The position numbers and the translations under genes are program-made. A stretch of DNA of 39,561 nt from a bacterium (GTDB taxonomy: Bacteria; Desulfobacterota; S145-22): positions 2,468 to 42,028 of the forward strand of contig JAOZMY010000008.1 in NCBI GenBank assembly GCA_029934085.1, read 5' to 3'. The notes under the pieces were generated by a model. It was not told the origin of the DNA. It did no database searches and was given only the letters and a program-made list of their open reading frames with translations. Of this stretch, positions 10,758 through 23,917 are shown in pieces (the first letter of the stretch is position 1; the number at the start of each line of letters is the position of its first letter).

Positions 10758-11168
10758 ATGAAGATACGGTTATCACGCGAAAATGTCAGAGGCGAATTTG
10801 TCAAAAAAGTGGAAATGATTAGTGGTGAGGACCTGCTTAAGTGCTACCAGTGCGGAAAGTGCTCCGCGGGATGCCCCGCGGCCTTCGAGATGGATATCCT
10901 TCCCTCCCACGTCATCCGGCTGGCCCAGATGGGGCAGGAGGAGGAACTCTCCAAGGTCAACAGCTACTGGATCTGCCTCTCCTGCCAAACCTGCACCGTC
11001 CGGTGCCCCCGCGGGGTGGACATCGCCAAGATCATGGAGGCCTTGCGCCTGGTCACCCTGCGTCAGAAGAACCAAAACAAGGTGGAAGCCACCGCCCTGC
11101 CCACGGAACTGCTGGCCGAGCTTCCCCAGATCGCCATTGTCAGCAACCTGCGCAAGATGAGCGGGTAA
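10758..11168 (+). CDS. hdrC: Heterodisulfide reductase subunit C-like 2x[4Fe-4S] protein (HdrC-1)
   Basis: 136 aa with two CxxCxxCxxxCP motifs (CYQCGKCSAGCP, CLSCQTCTVRCP) at HdrC-like spacing. Confidence 0.85.
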   Translation: MKIRLSRENVRGEFVKKVEMISGEDLLKCYQCGKCSAGCPAAFEMDILPSHVIRLAQMGQEEELSKVNSYWICLSCQTCTVRCPRGVDIAKIMEALRLVTLRQKNQNKVEATALPTELLAELPQIAIVSNLRKMSG

Positions 11169-11180
11169 GAGGGGATATTT

Positions 11181-12059
11181 ATGAAAATTCCTTACTATCC
11201 AGGATGCACGTTGAAAACCAAGGCCAAGGACCTGGAGGACTCCGCCATCGCGGCCGCCAAGGTCCTGGACATCGAGATGGAGGAACTCCCGCGCTGGAAC
11301 TGCTGCGGGACCGTTTACTCCCTGGCCTCGGACGACCTCATCCATCAGGTCGGCTCTATCCGGAACCTGGTGCGGGTCAAGGAACAGGGAGCCAACCAGG
11401 TCGTGACCCTCTGCTCCATGTGCTACAACACCCTGAAGCGGGCCAACGAGTTCTTTCTCGCCGACGAGGAGAAACAGGACCGCATCAACCGCTACATGGA
11501 CGAGGAGATCGACTACACGGGAGACGTCGCCGTGGTGCACCTCCTGGAGATCCTGCGGGACGAAGTGGGCATGGAGAAGATTAAGGCGGCCGTCAAGAAA
11601 CCGTTGACGGGCTTGAAGGTCTCTCCCTACTACGGGTGCATGTTGCTGCGGCCCGCCTCCATCGGGATCGACAACACGGAACGGCCCACGGTGATGGAGG
11701 ACCTCCTGCGAGCCCTGGGGGCGGAGGTTATCGACGACCCCTACAAGACCGAGTGCTGCGGTGCCTATCAGACCGTCAACCGCAAGGACGTGGTGGTCAC
11801 CTGCGTCCACAGCATCCTCACCTCGGCCCAGCGAAACGGGGCGGAGGTCATCGCCTTGAGCTGTCCCCTTTGTGACTTCAACCTGGACAACCGGCAGAAG
11901 GACATCCTCCAGACCTACAAAGGGTTCCATCCCATACCGGTCCTCTACTTCACCCAGTTGATGGCCATCGCCTTCGGCCTGGACGAATCGGTCTGCCGAT
12001 TCGAGCTGTCCTACAACGATCCCAGGCCGCTACTCAAATCCAAGGGGCTGATCGAATGA
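11181..12059 (+). CDS. hdrB: Heterodisulfide reductase subunit B-like protein, two CCG domains (HdrB-1)
   Basis: 292 aa with two complete C-Xn-CCG-Xm-CxxC units (YPGC/NCCGT/LCSMC and YYGC/ECCGAY/SCPLC). Confidence 0.88.
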   Translation: MKIPYYPGCTLKTKAKDLEDSAIAAAKVLDIEMEELPRWNCCGTVYSLASDDLIHQVGSIRNLVRVKEQGANQVVTLCSMCYNTLKRANEFFLADEEKQDRINRYMDEEIDYTGDVAVVHLLEILRDEVGMEKIKAAVKKPLTGLKVSPYYGCMLLRPASIGIDNTERPTVMEDLLRALGAEVIDDPYKTECCGAYQTVNRKDVVVTCVHSILTSAQRNGAEVIALSCPLCDFNLDNRQKDILQTYKGFHPIPVLYFTQLMAIAFGLDESVCRFELSYNDPRPLLKSKGLIE

Positions 12060-13399
12060 GCGAGACCTTCGAGAAAAAGGCCCTCATCGTGGGCGGCGGC
12101 GTGGCGGGGATCCAGGCAGCCCTGGACATCGCCGACGGCGGCTACCAGGTCATCCTGGTGGAGCGAACCCCGTCCATCGGCGGCCACATGGTCCAGCTCT
12201 CCGAGGTTTTCCCCACCCTGGACTGTCCCCAGTGTATCCTGACCCCCAAGATGGTCATGTGCGGGCAGCACCCCAACATCGACATCAAGGCCTACTGCGA
12301 GGTGGAATCGGTCACGGGAGAAGTAGGCAACTTCACCGTCAAGATCCGCCACAAGGCTACCTACGTGGACTGGGACGCCTGCACCGGCTGCGGCCAGTGC
12401 GAGCAGAAATGTCCCACCAAGGCCCCCTCCGAGTTTAACCGTGAACTCGCCTTCGGACCCCGGAAGGCCATCTACAGCCCCTTCGCCCAGGCGGTCCCCA
12501 ACAAGCGGGTCATCGATCCGGACCACTGCCTGAAGCTCACCAAGGACAAGTGCGGGATCTGCGCCAAGGTCTGCCCCACCCAGGCCATCCGCTACGACCA
12601 GAAGGACTGGTTTGAAGAAATCAAAGTGGGGGCCATCATCGTGGCCACCGGTTACGAGCTCTACAAGAAGGAGAACCTCACCGAATATGCCACCGATCCG
12701 GACGTCATCGACGGCTTGGAGTTCGAGCGGATCCTCTGTCCCTCCGGGCCCACCGCGGGGGTCATCCGGCGCCCCTCGGACGAGAAAGAGCCGAAGGAGG
12801 TGGTCTTCGTCCAGTGCGCCGGCTCCCGGGACCCCGACAAGCACCTCCCCTACTGTAGCCGGGTCTGCTGCATGTACTGCTGCAAGATGGCCATGCTCTA
12901 CAAGCACGCCGTGCCCGACGGGCAGGCCTACATCTTTTACATCGACGTGCGCACCGACGGGAAGATGTACGAGGAGTTCTACCAGCGGGGGGTGGAGGAG
13001 GATCGGATTGTCTATCTCCGGGGCAAGGTCTCCAAGATCTTCCGTCAGGGCGACAAAATCGTCGTCTTCGGTATGGACACCCTCACGGGAAAACGGGTGG
13101 AGGTGGAAGCGGATCTGGTGGTCCTGGCCATGGCCATGATCCCCAACCCCGCCGGGGAGAAAGTGAAAAAGGTCCTCAACCTGAAAACCGATCAGTTCGG
13201 GTTCATCACCGAGGCCCACGCCAAGCTGCACCCCGTGGAGACGGGCATCGACGGCATCTTCGTGGCGGGAACCGCCCAAGCCCCCAAGGACATTCCTGAG
13301 ACGGTGGCCCAGGCGGGCGGTGCCGCCAGCAAGGTCCTCTCCCTCTTCTCCGGGGTTGAAAAGGGACAAGAAGCCGTGTTGAAGGAGCTGACAGGATGA
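12056..13399 (+). CDS. hdrA: HdrA-type flavoprotein, short form (FAD domain plus inserted ferredoxin domain; no N-terminal or C-terminal domains)
   Basis: 447 aa with GGGVAGIQAALD dinucleotide motif, FPTLDCPQC, inserted Cys motifs CTGCGQCEQKCP and CLKLTKDKCGICAKVCP, and VFVQCAGSRDPDKHLPYCSRVCC. ATGA overlaps at both ends. Confidence 0.85.
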   Translation: MSETFEKKALIVGGGVAGIQAALDIADGGYQVILVERTPSIGGHMVQLSEVFPTLDCPQCILTPKMVMCGQHPNIDIKAYCEVESVTGEVGNFTVKIRHKATYVDWDACTGCGQCEQKCPTKAPSEFNRELAFGPRKAIYSPFAQAVPNKRVIDPDHCLKLTKDKCGICAKVCPTQAIRYDQKDWFEEIKVGAIIVATGYELYKKENLTEYATDPDVIDGLEFERILCPSGPTAGVIRRPSDEKEPKEVVFVQCAGSRDPDKHLPYCSRVCCMYCCKMAMLYKHAVPDGQAYIFYIDVRTDGKMYEEFYQRGVEEDRIVYLRGKVSKIFRQGDKIVVFGMDTLTGKRVEVEADLVVLAMAMIPNPAGEKVKKVLNLKTDQFGFITEAHAKLHPVETGIDGIFVAGTAQAPKDIPETVAQAGGAASKVLSLFSGVEKGQEAVLKELTG

Positions 13400-15366
13400 A
13401 GCCCCGCATCGGTGTGTTCGTCTGCCATTGCGGTCTGAACATTGCGGCGACCGTAGAGGTCAGCGAGGTCGTCAAGGCCATCAAGGACTATCCGGGCGTG
13501 GTCCACGCTCAGGACTACATCTACATGTGCTCCGATCCCGGCCAGGAGCTGGTCCGCAAGGCCATCCGGGAAAAGAATCTGACCGGTCTGGTCATGAGCA
13601 ACTGTTCTCCCTCCCTTCATGAACGGACCTTCCGGAATTTGGCCGCCTCCGAGGGGTTGAACCCCTACCTCGTGGAGGTGGCCAACATCCGGGAATACTG
13701 TAGCTGGCCCCACCAAGGCGATAAGGAGACCGCCACCAAGAAGGCCCTCACCATCATCAAGGCCACCATCGAACGGGTCAAGCGGAACCAGGCCCTCGTT
13801 CCCCTCATCGTGCCCCTCCAGAAGCGGGTCCTCGTCCTGGGCGGCGGCGTGGCGGGGATGCAGACGGCCCTGGATATCGCCGAGGGGGGCTATCCCGTCA
13901 CCATCCTGGAGAAGGAGGCCTACCTGGGCGGGCGGGTGCGCCAGCTGGACCGCACCTTCATTTCCCTGGAATCGGCCCCCGATCTCGTCAACGAGATGAT
14001 CGACCGCACCCTGAAACAGCCGAACATCGAGGTGTTGACCACCGCGCAGATCGAGAATCTCAGCGGCTACGTGGGAAATTTCGAGGTACGGATTCGCCAG
14101 CAGATTCCCTGGGTCGATCCCGACAAGTGCAACGGCTGCGAGGCCTGTATTACCGCCTGTCCGGCGGAGGTGCCCTCGGCCTTCGACCGGGGGTTGGTCA
14201 CGCGGAAGGCTATCGACTGGACGCCAGGGGAACGGTCCGGCGACAAGAGCATCTTCCTCGACCACCAGGTGTGCCGGCGCGTCACCCACCAGGAGAACTG
14301 CACCGCCTGCCAAGAGGCCTGCAAGGAAGGAGCCATCGCTTATCCGGAAGATCGGTTTATCGAACAAACCTACGGGGCCATCGTAGTAGCCACGGGACAC
14401 GACCTCTACCGGAAGTCCGCTTTGACGGAATACGCGGAGGACCCCGATGTCCTGGATGCCCTTCAGTTCGAGCGGATGCTGGCAGAGGACGGACCCACGG
14501 GCGGCAAGGTGATGCGTCCCTCCGACGGCAAGGTCCCCAAGGAGGTGGTCTTCGTCCAGTGCGCCGGGTCCCGGGACCCTGACAAGCATTTCCCCTACTG
14601 TTCCAAGGTCTGCTGCATGTACACCTGTAAGGAGGCCCGCCGTTACAAAGAGAAGGTTCCCGACGGCCAGGCCTATCTTTTCTACATCGACATCCGTTCC
14701 ACGGGGAAGGGCTACGAGGAGTTCGTCAAGGAGAGCGTGGAGAAAGAGCGTCTCCTCTACCTCAAAGGAAAGGTCTCCAAGATCGCCCGGCAGGGGGATA
14801 AACTCCTTGTTCTGGGGGGCGACACCATCACGGGGGTGCAGGTGGAGATCGAGGCCGATCTGGTAGTCTTGGCTATGGCCACGGTTCCTAATCCGGGGGC
14901 CAAGGAACTGGCCCGGCTCCTGAACATCAATACCGATCCCTACGGGTTCATTCAGGAAGCCCACCCCAAGCTGGCGCCGGTGGAGACCCTGACGGCGGGG
15001 ATCTATCTCGCCGGGACCTCCCAGGCCCCTAAGGATATCCCCCACACCATCTACCAGGCGGGCGGGGCCGCGTCAAAGATTCTCTCCCTCTTCTCCAGGA
15101 AGGAGCTGGTTCACGAGCCCCTCGTGGCGCGCGTGGACACGGAGATCTGCGCGGGCTGCGGCTACTGCCGCGACAACTGCGCCTTCCAAGCGGTGGATGT
15201 GGATCCCATTCGGAAGAAGGCGGTCGTTAACGAGGCCCTCTGCGAGGGGTGTGGCGCCTGCGCAACGGCCTGTCCCTCGGGGGCCATTCAGGTTAAGAAT
15301 TTGGATTCCAAGCAGGTTTTTGATATGATTTCCATCGTAACACAAGACTACTCATTGCAGCCGTAA
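13396..15366 (+). CDS. hdrA: HdrA-type flavoprotein, full-length architecture
   Basis: 656 aa. HdrA N-terminal domain (IGVFVCHCGLNIA), GGGVAGMQTALD, inserted ferredoxin (CNGCEACITACP), VFVQCAGSRDPDKHFPYCSKVCC, and C-terminal 2x[4Fe-4S] ferredoxin (CAGCGYCRDNC, CEGCGACATACP). Lacks the TLDCxxC motif (has SLESAPD). Confidence 0.9.
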   Translation: MKPRIGVFVCHCGLNIAATVEVSEVVKAIKDYPGVVHAQDYIYMCSDPGQELVRKAIREKNLTGLVMSNCSPSLHERTFRNLAASEGLNPYLVEVANIREYCSWPHQGDKETATKKALTIIKATIERVKRNQALVPLIVPLQKRVLVLGGGVAGMQTALDIAEGGYPVTILEKEAYLGGRVRQLDRTFISLESAPDLVNEMIDRTLKQPNIEVLTTAQIENLSGYVGNFEVRIRQQIPWVDPDKCNGCEACITACPAEVPSAFDRGLVTRKAIDWTPGERSGDKSIFLDHQVCRRVTHQENCTACQEACKEGAIAYPEDRFIEQTYGAIVVATGHDLYRKSALTEYAEDPDVLDALQFERMLAEDGPTGGKVMRPSDGKVPKEVVFVQCAGSRDPDKHFPYCSKVCCMYTCKEARRYKEKVPDGQAYLFYIDIRSTGKGYEEFVKESVEKERLLYLKGKVSKIARQGDKLLVLGGDTITGVQVEIEADLVVLAMATVPNPGAKELARLLNINTDPYGFIQEAHPKLAPVETLTAGIYLAGTSQAPKDIPHTIYQAGGAASKILSLFSRKELVHEPLVARVDTEICAGCGYCRDNCAFQAVDVDPIRKKAVVNEALCEGCGACATACPSGAIQVKNLDSKQVFDMISIVTQDYSLQP

Positions 15367-15376
15367 GGAGAAGGGA

Positions 15377-18300
15377 ATGGCAAACAATCGGGTTTTGGTG
15401 GTCGGAAGCGGCGTCAGTGGTTGGGCGGCTGCGCTGAATCTTGCCTCGTCCGGTGTCCAGGTTTCCCTCATCGAGCAGGCCCCGTTCTTAGGGGGAACCC
15501 TCACGCAGGTGGAACGCCAGTTTCCCACGAACCGCTGCCTCATGTGCACCCTGCTGCCTGTAACGGAGCGGGTGGAGGCCGCGGAATTCTGCCTCCGCAG
15601 GGACTTCTACCATCCTTTCATCGACGTGCATCTCCTCACCGCCCTCAAGAAAGTGGAGGGGGAGGCGGGGAACTTCACTGTCCAGCTGGAGACGAAACCG
15701 CGCTACGTCGTCGAGGAGGCCTGCATCGCCTGCGGCAAGTGTGAGGCGGTCTGCCCGGAGGAGGTACCCGACCCCTTCAACGGCAACCTCTCCAACCGCA
15801 AGGCCATCTACGCTCGGTCGCCCCAGGGGATCCCCCATGTTTACGTCATCGACGAGGCCGTCTGCACGAAGTGCGGCAAGTGCGTGGAGGCCTGTCCCAC
15901 GAATGCCATCGACCTCAAGCAAGAGACAAAGTCCTGGGATCTGAACGTGGCCGCCGTCGTCGTGGCCGCCGGCTTCGATCTTTTCGATCCTAACAACCTC
16001 CTCCAGTACGGCTGGGGCCGGTATCCTGACGTCCTAACCAGCCTCCAGTTGGAACGACTCCTCAGCGAGACGGGCCCCACCCAGGGGAACTGGGTGCGGC
16101 AGGCCACGGGCGAGCCGGTCAAGAAGGTCGCCTTCATCCAATGCGTCGGGTCCCGGGATGTGGACCACCCCTACTGTTCCTCCGCCTGCTGCATGATCGC
16201 TCTGAAGGAGGCCATGTTCGTCAAGGAGAAAAACCCCGAGATCGAAACGACCCTCTACTACATGGACCTGCGAGATTTCGGCAAGGGATATTACCGCTAC
16301 CGGGAACAGGCGGCGGCCATGGGTGTGAAATTCGTGGCCTCGCGGGTCCCGGATGTGAAATACAACCCCGCCACAAAGCAGTTGCTCATCCGTCATATCG
16401 GGGACAACGACGCTGTGACGGAGGAGGCAGTGGACCAGGTGATTCTCGCTGTGGGCCAGACCCCGTCGGACAAAAGCGGCACCCTGGCCGGGATGCTGGA
16501 TCTGGAGAAAGACGAGGGCGGCTATCTGGTGGCCACCGACCTGAATACCACGGCCACCCGGCGGGACGGCATCTACATCTGCGGCTCCGTCCGGGAGCCA
16601 AAGGATATCCCTGACGCCATCTGCGAAGGGGATGCCGCGGCGGCCCAGGCGATCCGCTGGGTGGAAGGTCCTCGCCTGGAAGAAGAAAAGGAAGCCCATC
16701 CCGAGGTGGAGTTGGAACCACCCAAGGTCGGTATTTTCTTGTGCCGATGTGGGGACGAGATCGCCGCGCGACTCGACCTGCCGAGCCTCGCGGAGGAACT
16801 ACGGAAACGGGGGAACGTGGCCTTCGTGCAGGAGGTGGACTACCTCTGCCTGAAGGAAACCACCGATTCCCTCGTCAAACAGATCAAGGACTCCAAGGTC
16901 AACCGAGTGGTCTTCGCCGCCTGCGTGCCCTACCGTTTCGAGCAACAGTTCCGGTCCATCCTGAAAGAGGCGGGGCTGCCGGAGAATTTCATGACCATCA
17001 CGAGCATCCGAGAGCAGGTGGCCTGGGTGCATGAGGCAGATTCTGAATCGGCCCGCCGGAAGGCGGCGGCGATGGTGGCGGCCGCCATCGACCGCGTCGC
17101 GGGGGAAATCCCCCGTACGCAGGCTACGCAGCCGGTCACCGGAAAGGTCCTTGTCATCGGCGGCGGCGTGGCAGGACTGACCGCCAGCCAGTTCCTCGCC
17201 GAACAGGGCGTGCCGGTGGATCTGGTGGAGATCGAGGAGAACCTGGGAGGGAACTTCAAGACGACCCATTTCCTCCTGGGAGGGAGCGATCCCCAGGCCT
17301 TCCTCGGGGATCTTATTGAGAAGGTCCAGACGAACGAGAACATCCGTGTCCTTACAAAGACCCGGGTGACAGCGAAGGAAGGGAGCCTGGGCCGATTCGT
17401 GATAACCCTCGAAACCCCGGAGGAAACGTTCAAAGAGGTCTATGGAGGCGTCATCCTCGCCACGGGGGCCAAAGAACACGAGGTTACCGAGTATGCCTAT
17501 GGCCAGCACCCCGCCGTCGTGACCATGCGGGAATTCGGGGAGAAGCTCTCGGATCCCTCCATGCCCGCGCCGAAGGACCTTGTCTTCATCCAGTGCGTCG
17601 GCTCCCGGGAGGGGGATCACCCCTACTGCAGCCGCTACTGCTGCTCCAAGGCCCTGGCCCACGCCTTGGAGGTCAAGCAGCGCTGGCCGGAATGTCAGGT
17701 TTCCGTCCTCTATCGGGACATCATGACCTACGGGAATAGGGAACGGGCCTACACGGAGGCGCGGGAGATGGGAATCCACTTCTTCCGTTACGGCGTGGAC
17801 GACAAACCCGCCGTGGAGGTAGGTGGAGACGTGGTGACCGTCCGGTTTACCGATCCCGTCCTGGGCGGAAAGGTGACCGTCTCGCCCGACTTTCTCGTGT
17901 TGAGCAACGGGGCCGAGGCGGATGATCGGGAGGGCATGGCCGATCTTTTCGGATTAGAGACCACGGAGGACGGTTTCTTCAAGGAGGCGGAGGTGAAATT
18001 CCGCCCGGTGGACGCCCCGGAGGCAGGAATTTGGCTCTGTGGGCTTGCCCTCGGCCCGAAGAATGTGAACGAGGTGATTATTCAAGCCGAGGCCGCTGCG
18101 GCGCGGGCCCTCACCGTCCTGAGGAAACAGGCATTGCGGCTCCCCCACGTGAAGGCGTGGGTCAGCCCACGGCGGTGTTCCGCCTGTGAGATGTGCGTGG
18201 ACGCCTGCCCCTACCATGCCCGGATCAAGGACGAAGACCTGGGCTATGTGGTGGTGCGGGAGGCCCTCTGCCAGGGCTGCGGCGTCTGCACGACCGTCTG

Positions 18301-18379
18301 CCCCAACAACGCCGTCAAACTGATTTCGTATCAGGAGAACCAGATTTTCTCCATGATCGATCGTATGGCATTAGGGTAA
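15377..18379 (+). CDS. hdrA: Double HdrA-type flavoprotein (short-form-like N-module fused to a full-form-like C-module)
   Basis: 1000 aa. The N-module has VVGSGVSGWAAALN, FPTNRCLMC, CIACGKCEAVCP, CTKCGKCVEACP and AFIQCVGSRDVDHPYCSSACC. The C-module (from about nt 16720) has VGIFLCRCGDEIA, VIGGGVAGLTASQF, VFIQCVGSREGDHPYCSRYCC and terminal CSACEMCVDACP / CQGCGVCTTVCP. Confidence 0.85.
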   Translation: MANNRVLVVGSGVSGWAAALNLASSGVQVSLIEQAPFLGGTLTQVERQFPTNRCLMCTLLPVTERVEAAEFCLRRDFYHPFIDVHLLTALKKVEGEAGNFTVQLETKPRYVVEEACIACGKCEAVCPEEVPDPFNGNLSNRKAIYARSPQGIPHVYVIDEAVCTKCGKCVEACPTNAIDLKQETKSWDLNVAAVVVAAGFDLFDPNNLLQYGWGRYPDVLTSLQLERLLSETGPTQGNWVRQATGEPVKKVAFIQCVGSRDVDHPYCSSACCMIALKEAMFVKEKNPEIETTLYYMDLRDFGKGYYRYREQAAAMGVKFVASRVPDVKYNPATKQLLIRHIGDNDAVTEEAVDQVILAVGQTPSDKSGTLAGMLDLEKDEGGYLVATDLNTTATRRDGIYICGSVREPKDIPDAICEGDAAAAQAIRWVEGPRLEEEKEAHPEVELEPPKVGIFLCRCGDEIAARLDLPSLAEELRKRGNVAFVQEVDYLCLKETTDSLVKQIKDSKVNRVVFAACVPYRFEQQFRSILKEAGLPENFMTITSIREQVAWVHEADSESARRKAAAMVAAAIDRVAGEIPRTQATQPVTGKVLVIGGGVAGLTASQFLAEQGVPVDLVEIEENLGGNFKTTHFLLGGSDPQAFLGDLIEKVQTNENIRVLTKTRVTAKEGSLGRFVITLETPEETFKEVYGGVILATGAKEHEVTEYAYGQHPAVVTMREFGEKLSDPSMPAPKDLVFIQCVGSREGDHPYCSRYCCSKALAHALEVKQRWPECQVSVLYRDIMTYGNRERAYTEAREMGIHFFRYGVDDKPAVEVGGDVVTVRFTDPVLGGKVTVSPDFLVLSNGAEADDREGMADLFGLETTEDGFFKEAEVKFRPVDAPEAGIWLCGLALGPKNVNEVIIQAEAAAARALTVLRKQALRLPHVKAWVSPRRCSACEMCVDACPYHARIKDEDLGYVVVREALCQGCGVCTTVCPNNAVKLISYQENQIFSMIDRMALG

Positions 18380-18393
18380 AGGAGAAAACAGAG

Positions 18394-18816
18394 ATGGAAG
18401 AATTCGAACCCAAGATCATCGGCTTTTTCTGCAACTGGTGCACCGCCACTGCGGCCGACTTGGCGGGGACGACCCGGCTCCAGTATCCCCCCAACCTCCG
18501 GCCCATCCGGGTCATGTGCACGGGAACGGTGGACCCGGTCTACATCCTCCGTTCGCTCCTTCTGGGGGCCGACGCCGTTTTCGTGGGCGGGTGACACCCG
18601 GGCGAATGCCACTATGTGAGTGGCAACCTCAAGGCCCGGCGGCGTGTGGCCATTCTGAAGACCATCTTCGACACCCTGGGACTGGAGAGCGAACGGGTCC
18701 ACCTGGAGTGGATCAGCGCCAGTGAGGGCAAGAAGTTTGCGGACACGGTCAAGAAGATTACAGAAGAGACCAAACAGCAAGGGCCCAACCCCTTAGCCAA
18801 GCACTGGTCCATCTAA
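18394..18816 (+). CDS. mvhD: MvhD/FlxD-family protein (methyl-viologen-reducing hydrogenase delta subunit-like), selenocysteine-containing; TGA at 18592-18594 read as Sec
   Basis: Two tracked ORF pieces (ending at 18594 and starting at 18616) are in the same frame. Joined, they give MEEFEPKIIGFFCNWC...GADAVFVGG-U-HPGECHYVSGNLKARRR...LEWISASEGKKF. This matches the MvhD pattern with Sec where the family has Cys (GC-H-x-G-x-C-H-Y). AGGAGA Shine-Dalgarno lies upstream of ATG 18394, and a hairpin follows the TGA. Confidence 0.85.
18598..18639 (+). promoter_or_regulatory. Candidate bacterial SECIS element
   Basis: Apical hairpin GCCACU-AUGUG-AGUGGC (18608-18624; 6-bp stem, GU-containing loop) starts 14 nt after the UGA. 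It is extended by an outer stem CCGGGC (18598-18603) / GCCCGG (18634-18639). Pairing checked by hand only. Confidence 0.55.
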
Positions 18817-18828
18817 CGGGAGACACCT

Positions 18829-19950
18829 ATGGCCAATAAATGGATAAAACACCCACTGGAAAACCGGGACGCCCTCATTAAGGGGTGGCTGAAGACCCTT
18901 TTGGAGAAGGAGATTGTGAAGGGGGTTGTCGTCCCCTCCCTACTTCCCTCGGGGGCGAACGCCGCCCAGAGCCTTATCACCGATCCGGCCATGCTGGAGA
19001 ACACGGATCCTTTCGCTCCGGTCATGGCGGTCAGCACAGCGAAGATCATTTCAAAAATGACCCGGCTCAAACCGATGGAGAAACCGGTGGCTGTCCTGCT
19101 CCGTCCATGCGAGCTGCGCGCCACCATCGAGCTGACGAAGCTGAAGCAGGCCAATTTGGACAACTTGCTCCTCATCGCCATGGATTGTGCAGGGACTTTT
19201 AGCGTGAAAACCTACACCTCCCTCGTCCAGGAGGGGGCGAATTTCGTAGAGATCGAGAGGAAGCTCTTCGCCGGAGAGGAGGACCCCCTCCTGCGGCCCG
19301 TCTGCCAAGGATGTGAATGGTCCGTCCCGGACAACTGTGACATCACCATCGCCTGGCACGGATTGGACGAGAGCAGTTTCGGCCTCATCGCCCACACAGA
19401 GAAGGGCGAGGCCTCCCTGGCGGAGATGGAAGGCGAGGCCTGGGAAAACGGGGAAGAGGCGCGCGCCGCCGCCGTGGAGAAATGGACGAACGACAAGATC
19501 GCCAAGCGGGACGCCCAGTTCGCCGAACTGAAGGAGCGGGTATCCGGCGTGGAAAACCTCCTGAAGACCTACGCCGCGTGCATCAACTGCCACAACTGCA
19601 TGACGGTCTGTCCCATCTGCTTCTGCAAGGAGTGTTTCTTCGACTCCGCCGTCTTCGAATTCGAGTCTGACCGGTTCATGGATTGGTCCAGCGCCCGTGG
19701 GAACCTGAGACTTCCCACCGACACGCTCCTCTTCCATATCGGCCGGATGAACCACATGTCCACCTCGTGCGTGGCCTGCGGCATGTGTCAGGACGCCTGT
19801 CCCAACGACATCCCCGTGGCCCAGATCTTCAAGATGGTGGGCTTTAACACACAGCAGCGCTTCGACTACGTTGCGGGGCGCAGCCTGGACGAACCCGTCC
19901 CCCTGGCCGACTTCCGGGAGGACGAACTCCATGAGATCGGAGGCGAATAG
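18829..19950 (+). CDS. Fe-S electron-transfer protein, FlxB/FlxC- or sulfhydrogenase-beta/AsrA-like
   Basis: 373 aa. C-terminal half has CINCHNCMTVCPICFCKEC followed ~60 aa later by CVACGMCQDACP. As I recall, this CxxCxxCxxxCPxCxC arrangement is seen in AsrA, Pyrococcus hydrogenase beta subunits and FlxB/C. The N-terminal half (LRPCELRATIEL...AMDCAGT) is FrhB/FdhB-like. Position directly after mvhD matches the flxD-flxC order. Confidence 0.6.
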   Translation: MANKWIKHPLENRDALIKGWLKTLLEKEIVKGVVVPSLLPSGANAAQSLITDPAMLENTDPFAPVMAVSTAKIISKMTRLKPMEKPVAVLLRPCELRATIELTKLKQANLDNLLLIAMDCAGTFSVKTYTSLVQEGANFVEIERKLFAGEEDPLLRPVCQGCEWSVPDNCDITIAWHGLDESSFGLIAHTEKGEASLAEMEGEAWENGEEARAAAVEKWTNDKIAKRDAQFAELKERVSGVENLLKTYAACINCHNCMTVCPICFCKECFFDSAVFEFESDRFMDWSSARGNLRLPTDTLLFHIGRMNHMSTSCVACGMCQDACPNDIPVAQIFKMVGFNTQQRFDYVAGRSLDEPVPLADFREDELHEIGGE

Positions 19951-19953
19951 ACC

Positions 19954-20532
19954 GTGGACTATCAACTAACGAACCAACCGGTCCGACAGGATCCCTCCTT
20001 CGCCAATGAGATCATCGAGGCAACAGGGGTCCGGGTGGATCGTTGCTACCAGTGCATGACCTGCACGCTGGGATGCCCCGTGGCGGATGCCATGGATTTC
20101 CCGCCCAACCAGGTCATGCGGCTCATCGACCTGGGAGCGGAGGAGATTCTTCTCTCCTCGCGCACCATCTGGATGTGCGTGACCTGCGAGACCTGCTTTG
20201 CGCGGTGCCCCAACCAGATCGATACGGCCGCCGTGATGGACTATCTGAGGGAGAAGGCTACGGCCAAGGGAATCGCGGTGCCCGAGGAGCGGATTCAGCT
20301 CCTCCATCAGGTTTTCGCGGAGAACATCAAGTCGTTCGGGAAGGTACATGAGGCCACCATGCTCATGGCCTACAAACTGAAGAGCAAGGACTTCTTCTCG
20401 GACATGGGCATCGGCCTGAAGCTCTTTCTGAAAGGGAAGATCCCTCTCTTCCCGTCCAAGGTCAAGGGGCTGGATGAGGTCAAGCGGATCTTCGAGAAGA
20501 CCTACGACCAAACCTTCGGAGGGAAGTCGTGA
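19954..20532 (+). CDS. hdrC: HdrC-like 2x[4Fe-4S] protein (HdrC-2)
   Basis: 192 aa with a GTG start 10 nt after GGAGG. Carries CYQCMTCTLGCP and CVTCETCFARCP. Longer C-terminal tail than HdrC-1. Confidence 0.8.
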   Translation: MDYQLTNQPVRQDPSFANEIIEATGVRVDRCYQCMTCTLGCPVADAMDFPPNQVMRLIDLGAEEILLSSRTIWMCVTCETCFARCPNQIDTAAVMDYLREKATAKGIAVPEERIQLLHQVFAENIKSFGKVHEATMLMAYKLKSKDFFSDMGIGLKLFLKGKIPLFPSKVKGLDEVKRIFEKTYDQTFGGKS

Positions 20533-21389
20533 AATTCTCCTACTACCCGGGGTGCACCGTTCACTCCACGGCCATCGAATACGCCCGGTCCATCGACGCC
20601 GTGGTCGCCGCGCTGGGGGTCGAACTTGCGGAGATCGAGGACTGGAACTGCTGCGGTGCCGCCGCGGCCCACAGCATTCATCGGAAGCTGGGGCTGGCCC
20701 TTCCCGCCCGAAACATCTCCCAGGCGCAGAAACAGACCCATCTCTCCCCCGACCTGGTTACCTCCTGCCCCGGTTGCTTCAATGCCCTGAAACGGGCGGA
20801 CTACGCCCTGCGCAATGACGAAGAGACCCGGAAGGAGATCGAGGAAACCGTGGGGTTTGCCTACAACGGGGAGGTTCGCATCCGCTCCCTGATGGAGGTT
20901 CTGACCCACGAACTCGGCGAGGAGGTTCTGAGCGCCAAGGTCAAACGGCCCTTGGACAGGCTGAAACTGGTCTGTTACTACGGTTGCGCCCTCGTGCGGC
21001 CCCATGCCGTCACGGGGCTCGAGAACCCGGAAAATCCCATGATGATGGATAATCTGATGAAATGGATGGGGGCGGACGTGCGTGACTGGTCCTACAAGAC
21101 CGAGTGTTGCGGGGCCGACCTGGCCCTCACCCACGGGGACATGGTCCAGAAGATCGTGGGACGCCTGATAGACCACGCCCGGGAGGCGGGCGCGGAGGCC
21201 GTCGTCACTTCTTGCGGGCTCTGCCAGGCCAACCTGGACATGCGCCAGACGGGGACAGATCCCCTGCCCGTCTTCTACTTCACCGAACTGATGGGGGTCG
21301 CCATGGATCTACCCAATCGCAAGGGTTGGTGGTCCAAGCATATCGTGAACCCGGGCCCGCTGCTCGCGCGGCTGGGATACGAATCATAA
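20529..21389 (+). CDS. hdrB: HdrB-like protein with two CCG domains (HdrB-2; SdhE/TfrB-like position)
   Basis: 286 aa with a GTGA overlap start. Two complete CCG units (YPGC/NCCGA/SCPGC and YYGC/ECCGAD/SCGLC). Confidence 0.85.
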   Translation: MKFSYYPGCTVHSTAIEYARSIDAVVAALGVELAEIEDWNCCGAAAAHSIHRKLGLALPARNISQAQKQTHLSPDLVTSCPGCFNALKRADYALRNDEETRKEIEETVGFAYNGEVRIRSLMEVLTHELGEEVLSAKVKRPLDRLKLVCYYGCALVRPHAVTGLENPENPMMMDNLMKWMGADVRDWSYKTECCGADLALTHGDMVQKIVGRLIDHAREAGAEAVVTSCGLCQANLDMRQTGTDPLPVFYFTELMGVAMDLPNRKGWWSKHIVNPGPLLARLGYES

Positions 21390-21436: not shown

Positions 21437-22213
21437 ATGACAACCACCGTTGCCAAAGACGCCATGCGCAAAGGAGACAAGACGGTCATCGCCGAAGGAA
21501 CGCGGATGATTCCCATCTACGTGATGGGGAAACGCTACTTCGTTCCGGAGACTCTGACCATTCAGAAGGCAATGGAATACGCCGGCTACCAATTCATTCG
21601 ATCCTGCGGGTGCCGCGGGGGGATCTGTGGGGCCTGCGCCACCGTCTACCGGCTGGAAGGAGACTACAAGCTCTATTCCGGGCTTGCCTGCCAGACTGTG
21701 GTGCAACCCAACATGTATCTCGTTCAGATTCCCTTCTTTCCCGCCAACAAGGTTGCTTACGACATCGAGAAGCTTCCCTACGACGTCACGGCCATTCAGA
21801 CCACTTACCCTGAGACCTTCCGCTGCGTTCAGTGCAATGCTTGCACCAAGGTCTGTCCCATGGACCTACAGGTCATGGACTACATGGCGGCGGCCATCCG
21901 GGGAGACATCGAGGCGGTGGCGGAGATGTCCCGGAGCTGCATCATGTGCGGGCTCTGCACCTCGCGCTGTCCTGCCGAGACCAACCAGTACAACATGGCA
22001 GAGCTCTGTCGCCGGTTGTATGGCCGCTACGGGCAGAAGAAGTCCCAGCAGGTGGCCAAGCGGGTGGAGGAGATCAAGGCGGGGAAATACGATCCCATGA
22101 TCGAAGAACTCCAATCTCTCCCCTTGGAAGAGCTCAAAAAACGTTATGAAGAGAGGGAATGGGAGCCCGTCATGAGCGAGGGATGGGAACCGAAAGAAAC
22201 AAAATATCTCTAA
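21437..22213 (+). CDS. sdhB: Succinate dehydrogenase/fumarate reductase iron-sulfur subunit-like protein
   Basis: 258 aa. N-terminal 2Fe-2S pattern GCRGGICGAC...LAC (compare SdhB CREGICGSC). Then CVQCNACTKVCP and CIMCGLCTSRCP: both distal motifs are full 4-Cys, with no 3Fe-type CxxxxxC motif. GGGAGG Shine-Dalgarno. Confidence 0.82.
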   Translation: MTTTVAKDAMRKGDKTVIAEGTRMIPIYVMGKRYFVPETLTIQKAMEYAGYQFIRSCGCRGGICGACATVYRLEGDYKLYSGLACQTVVQPNMYLVQIPFFPANKVAYDIEKLPYDVTAIQTTYPETFRCVQCNACTKVCPMDLQVMDYMAAAIRGDIEAVAEMSRSCIMCGLCTSRCPAETNQYNMAELCRRLYGRYGQKKSQQVAKRVEEIKAGKYDPMIEELQSLPLEELKKRYEEREWEPVMSEGWEPKETKYL

Positions 22214-22240: not shown

Positions 22241-23917
22241 ATGGCTTACACCCCGGAAATGAAAGAACTAATCAAGCGGGTCGAGGCAACCCGTCCAGAA
22301 AGGGTCGAGCGGGTCAAGCAAGGGATCCAGTTCCCGAAACTCTCCCTGGAAGAGTCACAGCGGCGCCTGAAGACCTATCATCCCGACTACAAGGAAGAGG
22401 GGCGCCGGGAGTTCAAGATCGGGCCCAACAAGGGGGACGGCCACTCCTACCCGGACGAGGTGGTGGATCTCTTCGAGGCCAAGAGCCGAATCGATCCCGA
22501 GATCGTGGACCTCTCGAAACCCGACTATGAAACGGATGTCCTGATCATTGGCGGCGGTGGCGCGGGGACCACGGCCTCCCTCTTTGCCCAGGAAAACGGG
22601 ATGAAGGTCATCATCGCCACGAAACTCCGCCACGGGGATGCCAACACCATCATGGCGGAGGGCGGGATTCAGTCGGCCGACTCCACCAAGGATTCTCCCT
22701 ACTACCACTACCTGGACATCATCGGCGGAGGGCATTTTACCAACAAGCCTGAGCTGGTGAAGGTGCTGACTCTTGATGCCCCGCTCATCATCCAGTGGCT
22801 GGAGAGCCTGGGCATGAACTTCGACAAAACCCCGGACGGTGAAATGCGGCTGCTGGCTGGCGGCGGCACCTGCCGGAAACGAATGCATTCCTGCGGGGAC
22901 GTCACGGGTGCGGAGATCATGAGAACCATCCGAGATGAGGCCCGCAACCGCCGCGATGACATCACGGTGCTGGAATACCAGCCCGCGGTGGAGATCATCC
23001 TGGACGAGGACGGCAAGGCCGCCGGGGCACTCCTCTACAACATGGAAACGGAGGAGTATACCATCGTTAAGGCCAAGGCCGTCATCATCACCACCGGGGG
23101 ATGCGGGCGGCTCCACATCCAGGGGTTCGCCACCACCAACCACTACGGGGCCACCATGGACGGTATCGTCATGGCCTACCGCTGCGGTGTTCCGCACTGC
23201 TTTCTTTACGCCACCCAGTACCACCCCACCGGGGCGGCCTATCCGGAGCAGAACGTTGGACTCCTCATCACGGAAAAGATGCGCACCGCCGGGGCCCAGC
23301 CCGTCAATATTGATGGGGAGGAATTCACCTTCCCCCTGGAGCCCCGCGACGTGGAATCCGCCAACATCATCCGGGAGTGCATGGACGTGGGTAAGGGGAT
23401 CCCCACCCCCGTGGGCCGGATCGGCGTTTGGCTCGATACACCCATGATCGACATGCTGCGTGGCGAGGGCACAGTGGAACACGACTTCCCCGCCAAATAC
23501 ATCCAGTTCAAACGCTACGGGATTGACATCAGCAAGGAACCACTGCTCGTCTATCCAACACTGCACTATCAGAACGGCGGCGTGGAAGCCAATGAGTGGG
23601 GCGAGACCAAGATCCCCGGACTCTTCGTTGCCGGGGAGGTCCTGGGTGGCATCCACGGGGAGAACCGACTGATGGGCAACTCACTGCTCGACATCAACGT
23701 ATACGGCCGCCGGGCCGGGATCCGGGCCGCGGAATACGTGAAAGAGGGGATCACCCTGAAGAAGCTTACCCTTGAGCACGTCCGGGCATATCACAAGGAA
23801 CTGAAAGAAGCCGGAATCGAGACGGACCGGATCTCCCCCATGCTCCTGCCCGACTACTCCAACCCCGAGGTCCGGGCGAAGCAGCTTACCGCACGGTATT
23901 TCGGGACGCTACGGTAA
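22241..23917 (+). CDS. sdhA: Succinate dehydrogenase/fumarate reductase flavoprotein subunit-like protein
   Basis: 558 aa with DVLIIGGGGAGTTASL, TIMAEGGIQSA, YHPTG and FVAGEVLGGIHGENRLMGNSLLDINVYGRRAG. About 98 aa precede the FAD motif. Asn sits where FrdA/SdhA carry the FAD-linking His. Confidence 0.85.
   Translation: MAYTPEMKELIKRVEATRPERVERVKQGIQFPKLSLEESQRRLKTYHPDYKEEGRREFKIGPNKGDGHSYPDEVVDLFEAKSRIDPEIVDLSKPDYETDVLIIGGGGAGTTASLFAQENGMKVIIATKLRHGDANTIMAEGGIQSADSTKDSPYYHYLDIIGGGHFTNKPELVKVLTLDAPLIIQWLESLGMNFDKTPDGEMRLLAGGGTCRKRMHSCGDVTGAEIMRTIRDEARNRRDDITVLEYQPAVEIILDEDGKAAGALLYNMETEEYTIVKAKAVIITTGGCGRLHIQGFATTNHYGATMDGIVMAYRCGVPHCFLYATQYHPTGAAYPEQNVGLLITEKMRTAGAQPVNIDGEEFTFPLEPRDVESANIIRECMDVGKGIPTPVGRIGVWLDTPMIDMLRGEGTVEHDFPAKYIQFKRYGIDISKEPLLVYPTLHYQNGGVEANEWGETKIPGLFVAGEVLGGIHGENRLMGNSLLDINVYGRRAGIRAAEYVKEGITLKKLTLEHVRAYHKELKEAGIETDRISPMLLPDYSNPEVRAKQLTARYFGTLR

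Follow-up and report, generated by a model that had tools for sequence, protein, structure and literature searches.

Three hdrA Genes Between Two Pairs of hdrBC Genes

The window analyzed in this work, a stretch of 39,561 nucleotides (nt) from contig JAOZMY010000008.1 of assembly GCA_029934085.1, harbors three consecutive genes for HdrA-type flavoproteins, hdrA-S (nt 12056-13399), hdrA-L (nt 13396-15366) and hdrA-F (nt 15377-18379), which encode proteins of 447, 656 and 1000 amino acids (aa), respectively, and which are the subject of this study. Positions are those of the window, and all genes of the operon are located on the + strand. The source genome has a size of 2.4 Mb and a completeness of 94%, and its close relatives are metagenome-assembled genomes labelled Thermodesulfobacteriota. 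In the operon, genes for a double malic enzyme, for two members of the Ldh/Mdh family and for the alpha and beta subunits of fumarase precede hdrC-1 and hdrB-1. The three hdrA genes come next and are followed by mvhD, a gene for a 373-aa Fe-S protein, hdrC-2, hdrB-2 and genes similar to frdB and frdA. At the hdrB-1/hdrA-S and hdrA-S/hdrA-L (nt 13396-13399) junctions, stop and start codons overlap as ATGA, which we read as translational coupling.

Complementary Domain Composition of Four HdrA Modules

An initial annotation, made from the sequence alone, had proposed that the three open reading frames (ORFs) encode four HdrA modules, two of them in separate genes and two fused in one chain, and its coordinates proved exact. 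All three proteins match the NCBIfam models for HdrA/HdrA2 with E values of 1e-113 to 1e-243, with best scores of 504.8, 661.9 and 808.6 bits that all stay under the curated cut-offs of the equivalog models for methanogen HdrA, NF041778, NF041891 and NF040770 (1100-1400 bits). HdrA-L aligns end to end with HdrA from M. thermolithotrophicus (PDB 5ODC chain A; E 2e-166). A thioredoxin reductase (TrxR)-like core with the GxGxxG motif for binding of flavin adenine dinucleotide (FAD) and the cluster motif CxGSR...CSxxCC are present in each of the four modules, placing them in the HdrA superfamily.

The four modules were aligned with 5ODC chain A using MAFFT, and the residue numbers of this reference are used for motif positions. 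As a second check, module anatomy was read from a domain map of 48 modules from the same genome, from close relatives and from distant loci, which was based on hidden Markov models (HMM). Both analyses uphold the anatomy described in the initial annotation. HdrA-S consists of the FAD/TrxR core with an FPTxDCxxC-type Cys194/Cys197 pair (FPTLDCPQC, nt 12209-12235) and an inserted ferredoxin domain with two [4Fe-4S] motifs, and it has neither the N-terminal domain nor the C-terminal ferredoxin domain. The same S-type composition is found in module 1 of HdrA-F (residues 1-445; nt 15377-16711), in which the Cys pair corresponds to Cys54/Cys57 of the 1000-aa protein (FPTNRCLMC, nt 15521-15547). HdrA-L comprises an N-terminal cluster domain (VCHCG, nt 13420-13434), the FAD core, an inserted ferredoxin domain and a C-terminal domain with two [4Fe-4S] motifs, and carries FISLESAPD (nt 13957-13983) in place of the Cys pair. 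Module 2 of HdrA-F (residues 446-1000; nt 16712-18379) is likewise of the L-type, with an N-terminal domain (LCRCG, nt 16739-16753) and a C-terminal 2x[4Fe-4S] domain. In this module the Cys pair is replaced by LLGGSDPQA (nt 17273-17299) and just 5 residues remain at the site of the inserted ferredoxin domain. Cys386, Cys399, Cys403 and Cys404 of the CxGSR...CSxxCC motif (CAGSR..CSRVCC at nt 12815-12886 in hdrA-S) are retained in all four modules. The missing motifs are not merely shifted, as no displaced copies were found in the alignment or in the HMM map, and the full set of five elements (N-terminal domain, Cys194/Cys197, inserted ferredoxin domain, TrxR cluster and C-terminal ferredoxin domain) is found in none of the four modules. 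HdrA-S, with Cys197 and no N-terminal domain, and HdrA-L, with an N-terminal domain and no Cys197, form a complementary tandem pair; HdrA-F, in which two TrxR modules share the Cys pair and the N-terminal domain between them in a single chain, is a fused HdrA.

No variation was seen among 49 homologues of the fused protein in the module 1 Cys pair, in the four N-terminal domain cysteines of module 2 or in any of the cluster cysteines. The AlphaFold2 (AF2) model of the 1000-aa chain is one confident body, with whole-chain scores of 83.9 for the predicted local distance difference test (pLDDT) and 0.84 for the predicted template modeling score (pTM), and only the loop of the Cys pair and the linker are of low confidence; the pTM speaks for a confident placement of the two modules relative to each other. 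Chains of HdrA are the top matches when this model is used in Foldseek, a result which confirms the fold and is uninformative on the geometry between the modules. Fused N-modules carry a 10-residue insertion right after the Cys pair (within nt 15515-15625 of the window, residues 46-83), in which Cys72, Leu73, Arg74 and His79 are invariant in the 49 homologues and for which AF2 confidence is below 60.

Equivalents of Glu356 and Lys409, which have been used as a criterion for a bifurcating flavin in work on the fused HdrA of acetogens (Kremp et al., 2022, PMC9430772), are present in HdrA-S, in HdrA-L and in module 1 of HdrA-F, where Lys277 corresponds to Lys409. In module 2 of HdrA-F, Ala761 occupies the position of Lys409, and equivalents of R357, G363/G367, R431, K435 and D546, otherwise near-invariant residues, are also missing.

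Conservation of the Operon and Purifying Selection

Seven related species possess the operon in complete form, with the three hdrA ORFs at the same lengths as in the window. Across these relatives, amino acid identities are 90-99% for HdrA-S, 83-97% for HdrA-L and 72-92% for HdrA-F, and orthologues of HdrA-S with at least 91% identity occur in six of eight genomes of the same family. Pairwise ratios of nonsynonymous to synonymous substitution rates (dN/dS) amount to 0.02-0.04 for hdrA-S, 0.05-0.07 for hdrA-L, 0.05-0.09 for module 1 and 0.09-0.14 for module 2 of hdrA-F, values that indicate strong purifying selection on each of the four modules. At the protein level, hdrA-F evolves several-fold faster than hdrA-S (dN of 0.036-0.055 versus 0.008 when compared to the relative L001), module 2 being the fastest.

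Covariation of the Cys Pair With the N-Terminal Domain of the Neighbor

Within the set of 48 modules, Cys197 is retained wherever the N-terminal domain is missing, it is lost in every L module whose partner has no N-terminal domain, and canonical proteins of the homodimer type retain all elements. Where the gene in the S position is an HdrL-type gene of 906-1039 aa with an N-terminal domain (distant loci L062, L063 and L065), the adjacent L gene retains Cys197; where the S-position gene has no N-terminal domain (window lineage, L064 and L066), the adjacent L gene has no Cys197. This covariation between neighbors holds for six of six lineages. Such a relationship is what ligation in trans would predict, which argues that HdrA-S is the partner of HdrA-L and not of the fused protein. 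In the literature, heterodimeric HdrA is recognized by this complementarity between Cys197 and the N-terminal domain (PMC9012536), and the co-evolution signal in the relatives supports the link in trans between Cys197 and the N-terminal domain cluster that was proposed from the structures of methanogen HdrA and BamE.

Separate Origins of the Split and the Fused Pair

A maximum-likelihood tree was calculated from the shared TrxR core (349 columns, LG+C20). HdrA-S and HdrA-L belong to sister clades (support 100/97), which are both nested among canonical bacterial HdrA of 650 aa and which each include their own syntenic orthologues from other phyla. Module 1 of HdrA-F falls into a clade of fused N-modules (100/99) and module 2 into a long-branch clade of fused C-modules (100/100). 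At least six changes of the S/L label are required on this tree, and a constraint that forces the S modules of the window lineage together is rejected (delta lnL, the difference in log-likelihood, of 48; p = 0.0009 in the approximately unbiased (AU) test). The initial annotation had expected the four modules to group into short-type and long-type pairs, and its reading has to be revised in this respect. From the tree, the shared short and long architectures are judged convergent, products of separate duplications, because HdrA-S and HdrA-L are sisters while the fused halves sit in two other clades. By the same phylogenetic evidence, complementary pairs arose repeatedly, namely as the pair of the window, a second pair in the same genome (C145), the L064 pair, pairs in Bacillota and Zixibacteria, and the fused type.

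The pairs from Bacillota (L013, L018, L047 and L054) and Zixibacteria (L009) consist of split S (417-425 aa) and L (745-763 aa) proteins, which are sisters in the tree (100/100). Their L members have no inserted ferredoxin domain, unlike the L member of the window, and the pairs represent an unfused counterpart of the fused architecture. At the DNA level, hdrA-S and hdrA-L are identical at 77 of 87 positions around the CxGSR..CSxxCC motif (nt 12794-12880 versus 14539-14625), including a perfect run of 29 nt, and the 88% identity in this tract of about 90 nt compares with a background of about 68% in the shared core. A short gene conversion or a constraint at the codon level are possible causes. 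Gene conversion was rejected as the cause of the sister relation of HdrA-S and HdrA-L, as only this tract stands out and each protein groups with its own orthologues.

Distribution of the Gene String and the HdrL Counterpart

Fused HdrA proteins of about 1000 aa with the S module preceding the L module are very common (more than 1243 protein clusters at E 1e-30 or better), and the protein of the window shares full-length identities of 42-47% with homologues from Chloroflexota/Dehalococcoidia, Deltaproteobacteria, KSB1 and others. In five of five distant loci (L062-L066), the fused gene is part of the string [HdrL-type HdrA]-[650-660-aa HdrA-L]-[fused HdrA]-MvhD-[374-aa FrhB_FdhB_C-like protein]-HdrC-HdrB, with mvhD directly after the fused gene as in the window. 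FrdB-FrdA follow in four of these five loci, and genes of the tricarboxylic acid cycle are nearby in two. In the literature searched, no specific description was found of a fumarate reductase that is coupled to Hdr or bifurcating and encoded by such a gene block. The Hdr-Frd block is widely conserved and biochemically uncharacterized, and the locus marks it as a target for purification.

By its position and in the tree, HdrA-S corresponds to the HdrL-type gene (906-1039 aa), and the two share 60-69% identity outside the insert. In the orthologues from other phyla, a GltD/NfnB-type module for NAD(P)H sits inside the second ferredoxin motif, the feature of HdrL or type III HdrA. This module comprises about 470 aa in the genes L062:4950-8045, L063:821-3940, L064:5211-7967, L065:4842-7562 and L066:4830-7586. 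The insert region of HdrA-S is 88 aa long, compared to inserts of 547-553 aa in the syntenic orthologues, and its 2x[4Fe-4S] motif is intact. HdrA-S does not carry the GltD/NfnB insert in its ferredoxin domain that defines HdrL or type III, and since it has neither this insert nor an N-terminal domain, it is not an HdrL. The node that bears on whether HdrA-S lost the insert or HdrL gained it has a support of only 81/59. We also considered the enlarged C-x8-C loop of HdrA-S as a scar of a deleted GltD insert and rejected this idea, as the same loop is found in canonical bacterial HdrA and in L proteins. HdrL has been known since the genome of Desulfobacterium autotrophicum was described, and in Syntrophobacter fumaroxidans its clusters include MvhD and an FdhB-like Fe-S protein, partners that it has in common with the string described here.

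Comparison With Known HdrA Systems

Methanogen HdrA (PDB 5ODC, 7BKB and 8RVU) has the same fold and cofactor motifs as the proteins of the window. However, all its elements are united in one chain that forms a symmetric homodimer, whereas in the window the elements are divided between partners, and the window belongs to a bacterium in which no coenzyme M/coenzyme B (CoM/CoB) context was seen. In the super-assembly of M. maripaludis, the Cys/Sec197 pair (Sec, selenocysteine) lies between FAD and cluster A3 of the N-terminal domain, on the low-potential route (PMC13518236, 2026).

The concept of an HdrA heterodimer has already been published for anaerobic methanotrophic (ANME) archaea, acetogens and type II proteins. 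Chadwick et al. (2022, PMC9012536) described HdrA proteins, either in tandem (HdrA5/6 and HdrA12/13) or fused (HdrA3/4 and Moorella), in which Cys197 and the N-terminal domain show "complementary presence/absence", and proposed the tandem proteins of ANME archaea as obligate heterodimers. Compared with HdrA5/6 and HdrA12/13, the split pair of the window is bacterial and stems from its own duplication of canonical HdrA. In the classification of Lyu, Yu and Lu (2025, PMC12054007), type I includes the A6 proteins with the S architecture, type II the fused proteins and type III those with a GltD insert, and the halves II_N and II_C of type II form separate clades, as do the N- and C-modules of the fused protein in our tree. 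Unlike the window protein, these type II and HdrA3/HdrA4 proteins are archaeal, and Lyu et al. report K409/E356 in both halves, whereas the second half of HdrA-F has no K409. In the fused HdrA of Chadwick et al., the half with the N-terminal domain comes first, whereas it comes second in HdrA-F and its 49 bacterial homologues. Fused duplicated HdrA has also been noted in Asgard and TACK archaea. The HdrA of the MetFV-HdrABC-MvhD complexes of Sporomusa ovata and Moorella thermoacetica has an extra N-terminal TrxR module before a part that resembles canonical HdrA (PMC9430772), and in S. ovata the E/K pair is confined to the N-terminal module as in HdrA-F (PMC9430772). In contrast to the window, their partners are MetFV, and the Moorella protein additionally carries a GltD module.

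The structural precedent for the fused form is BamE of class II benzoyl-CoA reductase from Geobacter metallireducens, which we compared by the description in a 2026 preprint only (bioRxiv 10.64898/2026.04.10.717634); a sequence search of the PDB returned no solved fused HdrA. According to this cryo-electron microscopy study, BamE is, like HdrA-F, a fused HdrA dimer in a single chain. In its N-terminal TrxR module, Lys280 is located 3.4 A away from N5 of the bifurcating FAD, and the module also has a Cys-x-x-Cys pair (Cys59-Cys62, near residue 60) and an inserted ferredoxin domain. The flavin of its C-terminal TrxR module has no lysine, is not at the branch point and is described as non-bifurcating and mainly structural, and an MvhD-like adaptor with selenocysteine and an HdrBC-like partner are present. 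In the window, the counterparts of these features are Cys54/Cys57, Lys277 and Ala761 of HdrA-F and MvhD with Sec67. In contrast to BamE, the partners encoded in the window are HdrBC pairs and FrdAB and not BamBC tungsten modules. The losses in module 2 of HdrA-F fit the pattern of BamE and S. ovata, in which E/K or Lys are found in the N-module only, and by this analogy the flavin of module 2 is probably structural or a simple relay.

Probable Pairing Into Two Asymmetric HdrA Units and Alternative Readings

From the sequence evidence, each short module most likely has a long module as its working partner, which would give one split and one fused asymmetric pair. In this uncultured Thermodesulfobacteriota bacterium of the sulfate reducer type, the products of the three genes probably form two asymmetric HdrA units within a soluble flavin/iron-sulfur complex of the Hdr type. 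The initial annotation had spoken of two pseudo-heterodimers, and the asymmetric pairing is well supported by the complementarity, by the covariation and by the precedent of BamE; the four modules are not equivalent, as the C-module of HdrA-F has no bifurcation lysine, and the idea itself was already in the literature.

A mechanism can be outlined by analogy with 5ODC/8RVU, with the M. maripaludis super-assembly and with BamE. Unit 1 would be a heterodimer of HdrA-S and HdrA-L, and unit 2 the 1000-aa chain as an intramolecular pseudo-dimer of the type II or BamE kind. The S module would provide the flavin, marked by equivalents of Glu356/Lys409 as a signature of bifurcation, and the Cys194/Cys197 pair, the inserted di-cluster ferredoxin domain as the low-potential exit, and the CxGSR..CSxxCC cluster that wires to HdrC/HdrB as the high-potential exit. 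The L module would contribute the sole N-terminal cluster domain, served in trans by the Cys pair of the partner, and the sole C-terminal di-cluster domain as the entry from MvhD. With a single N-terminal domain and a single C-terminal di-cluster domain per unit, one complete circuit would result, compared to two in a homodimer. Electrons would pass from MvhD through the C-terminal di-cluster domain of L to the flavin of S. From there, the high-potential electron would travel through the CxGSR..CSxxCC cluster to HdrC/HdrB and, from the second HdrBC pair, probably on to FrdAB, and the low-potential electron through the Cys pair of S, the N-terminal domain cluster of L and the inserted ferredoxin domain to ferredoxin. 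The second flavin of HdrA-F probably has a structural role; in the split pair both flavins retain the signature and a second active site is possible. The anatomy, the complementarity, the covariation, the selection, the conservation and the phylogeny are results of this study; the physical pairing, the identity of the bifurcating flavin and the link to fumarate/succinate through HdrB2C2-FrdAB are what we infer, and bifurcation activity as such would be a prediction from the signature residues and the gene context.

The following observations weigh against this reading of two asymmetric units. There are relatives in which the same three HdrA genes occur with one HdrBC pair only, so a wiring of one unit to one HdrBC pair, as in the paths toward HdrB1C1 and HdrB2C2-FrdAB that the initial annotation gave as an example, is not required. 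The HdrA-S orthologue of other phyla carries the GltD/NfnB-type NAD(P)H module that is absent in the window lineage, and without it the operon has no recognizable NAD(P)H port. In module 2 of HdrA-F, the equivalent of E356 depends on the alignment, being Gly or a Glu displaced by a one-residue insertion. Finally, HdrA-L has both an inserted ferredoxin domain of its own and a complete E/K signature, which would allow for two active flavins in the split unit or for a second role of HdrA-L.

Independent homo-oligomers or isoenzymes, with an HdrA-S homodimer, an HdrA-L homodimer and a fused protein acting alone, would make the complementarity an incidental loss of domains. The minimal sHdr-type HdrA without N- and C-terminal domains is indeed a homodimer (PDB 6TJR, which was matched here), and FAD, the E/K residues and the inserted ferredoxin domain are found in HdrA-S and HdrA-L alike. 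However, two N-terminal domains would be left unserved by any Cys197 in an HdrA-L homodimer, the strictly conserved Cys pair would be without a target in an HdrA-S homodimer, the covariation in six lineages would go unexplained, and the hdrA-S and hdrA-L genes overlap, so that we regard this arrangement as improbable. Still harder to uphold is a descent of the modules from two ancient families, with HdrA-S and module 1 of HdrA-F in one lineage and HdrA-L and module 2 in another. Such a descent would account for the domain architectures that are common to the members of each family, but it is contradicted by the position of HdrA-S and HdrA-L as sisters, by that of the fused halves elsewhere in the tree and by the AU test, and Lyu et al. 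report the same separation for type II_N and II_C (PMC12054007). That the 447/656 pair is a broken fused gene, a pseudogene or an assembly artefact can be dismissed almost entirely. The order of S before L does match the fused gene and the two genes abut, yet both ORFs are intact at unchanged lengths in the seven species-level relatives, their dN/dS values are 0.02-0.07, the pair is not derived from the fused type in the tree, and comparable S+L pairs on separate genes were found in Bacillota, Zixibacteria and further families of Thermodesulfobacteriota. The check for a frameshifted pseudogene called for with the initial annotation is thereby settled in favor of two genuine genes.

A further arrangement refines rather than excludes the pairing into a split and a fused unit. 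The S/L heterodimer, the fused pseudo-dimer, the selenocysteine-containing MvhD, the FrhB-like protein, HdrB1C1, HdrB2C2 and FrdAB might act together in one super-assembly, with two bifurcation-type flavin modules in series as in class II benzoyl-CoA reductase. The string [HdrL or S]-[HdrA-L]-[fused HdrA]-MvhD-FrhB-like-HdrC-HdrB is kept in the five distant and in seven close loci, and there is a single mvhD gene for three HdrA genes. Serial bifurcation was proposed by Lyu et al. for HdrA of types II and I encoded in the same cluster (PMC12054007), and class II benzoyl-CoA reductase couples two bifurcation modules (bioRxiv 10.64898/2026.04.10.717634). Gene order by itself, however, is no proof of a single complex, and we consider such an assembly a tentative option only. 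With the same reserve, the conserved string including FrdB-FrdA, found here, in Chloroflexota, in KSB1 and in other metagenomic lineages, could represent an uncharacterized super-complex in which two asymmetric HdrA units in series tie fumarate/succinate to ferredoxin. If this were true, the super-complex would be soluble and independent of CoM/CoB and would act either as an electron-bifurcating fumarate reductase or as a confurcating succinate dehydrogenase, and the window lineage would be a natural variant without a built-in NAD(P)H port.

One of the main machines of flavin-based electron bifurcation is built around HdrA, and the origin of a broken symmetry with one circuit per dimer is of mechanistic interest. 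At the locus described here, a split and a fused asymmetric pair of independent origins stand side by side.

Further Genes of the Operon

HdrC-1 (nt 10758-11168; 136 aa) is an HdrC-like protein with two [4Fe-4S] motifs (Pfam Fer4_8/Fer4_17) that is 90-98% conserved in the relatives L001-L006, and HdrB-1 (nt 11181-12059; 292 aa) contains two CCG domains (Pfam). Downstream of hdrA-F, mvhD (nt 18394-18816) encodes the [2Fe-2S] adaptor to HdrA (Pfam FlpD, E 4e-50) and contains an in-frame TGA (nt 18592-18594); when this codon is read through as selenocysteine (Sec67, GG-U-HPGECHY), a full FlpD/MvhD domain is obtained. The mvhD orthologue of L062 is annotated as two genes (101 + 56 aa) that are split at the same place. 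The 373-aa Fe-S protein (nt 18829-19950) matches only Fer4_8 in Pfam. Its five distant syntenic counterparts (374-376 aa) match FrhB_FdhB_C (PF04432), weakly or faintly in three cases, which suggests a flavin- or F420-type site that may be degenerate or divergent in this lineage. The genes hdrC-2 (nt 19954-20532; Pfam Fer4_8) and hdrB-2 (nt 20529-21389; Pfam CCG) form a block that is conserved in relatives. They are followed by the frdB/sdhB-like gene (nt 21437-22213; Pfam Fer4 dicluster) and the frdA/sdhA-like gene (nt 22241-23917; Pfam FAD_binding_2), which are likely to constitute the high-potential end of the system.

Other HdrA Genes in the Same Genome

Beyond the window, the genome encodes a second split pair (contig C145), two more fused genes (C112 and C51) and a canonical HdrA with Sec197 (C163). 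The split S+L pair of C145 (C145:16945-28426; 438 and about 650 aa) consists of sister paralogues (97/94), and its neighbors are an HdrD-like CCG protein, EtfB, an acyl-CoA dehydrogenase and EtfA, the last of which is assigned from its sequence only. In the hdrA genes of C51 (C51:4188-6512) and C163 (C163:178-2109), a TGA codon is located exactly at the position of Cys197 (TFPTNECST-U-I and TFPTLDCSA-U-I), as in Methanococcus HdrA, and the S modules of the window have Cys and not Sec at this position. On C51 (C51:375-6512), a gene of the aldehyde:ferredoxin oxidoreductase family (AFOR_N/AFOR_C), a small Fe-S gene and a 398-aa gene precede the fused Sec197 HdrA, within which the contig ends, an arrangement that resembles BamB-BamC-BamD-BamE of class II benzoyl-CoA reductase. 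On C163 (C163:139-5426), the canonical full-length Sec197 HdrA is accompanied by a molybdopterin formate dehydrogenase-like gene, a 272-aa Fe-S protein and a Cys-type MvhD, and by its gene content this is an Fdh-Hdr-type locus.

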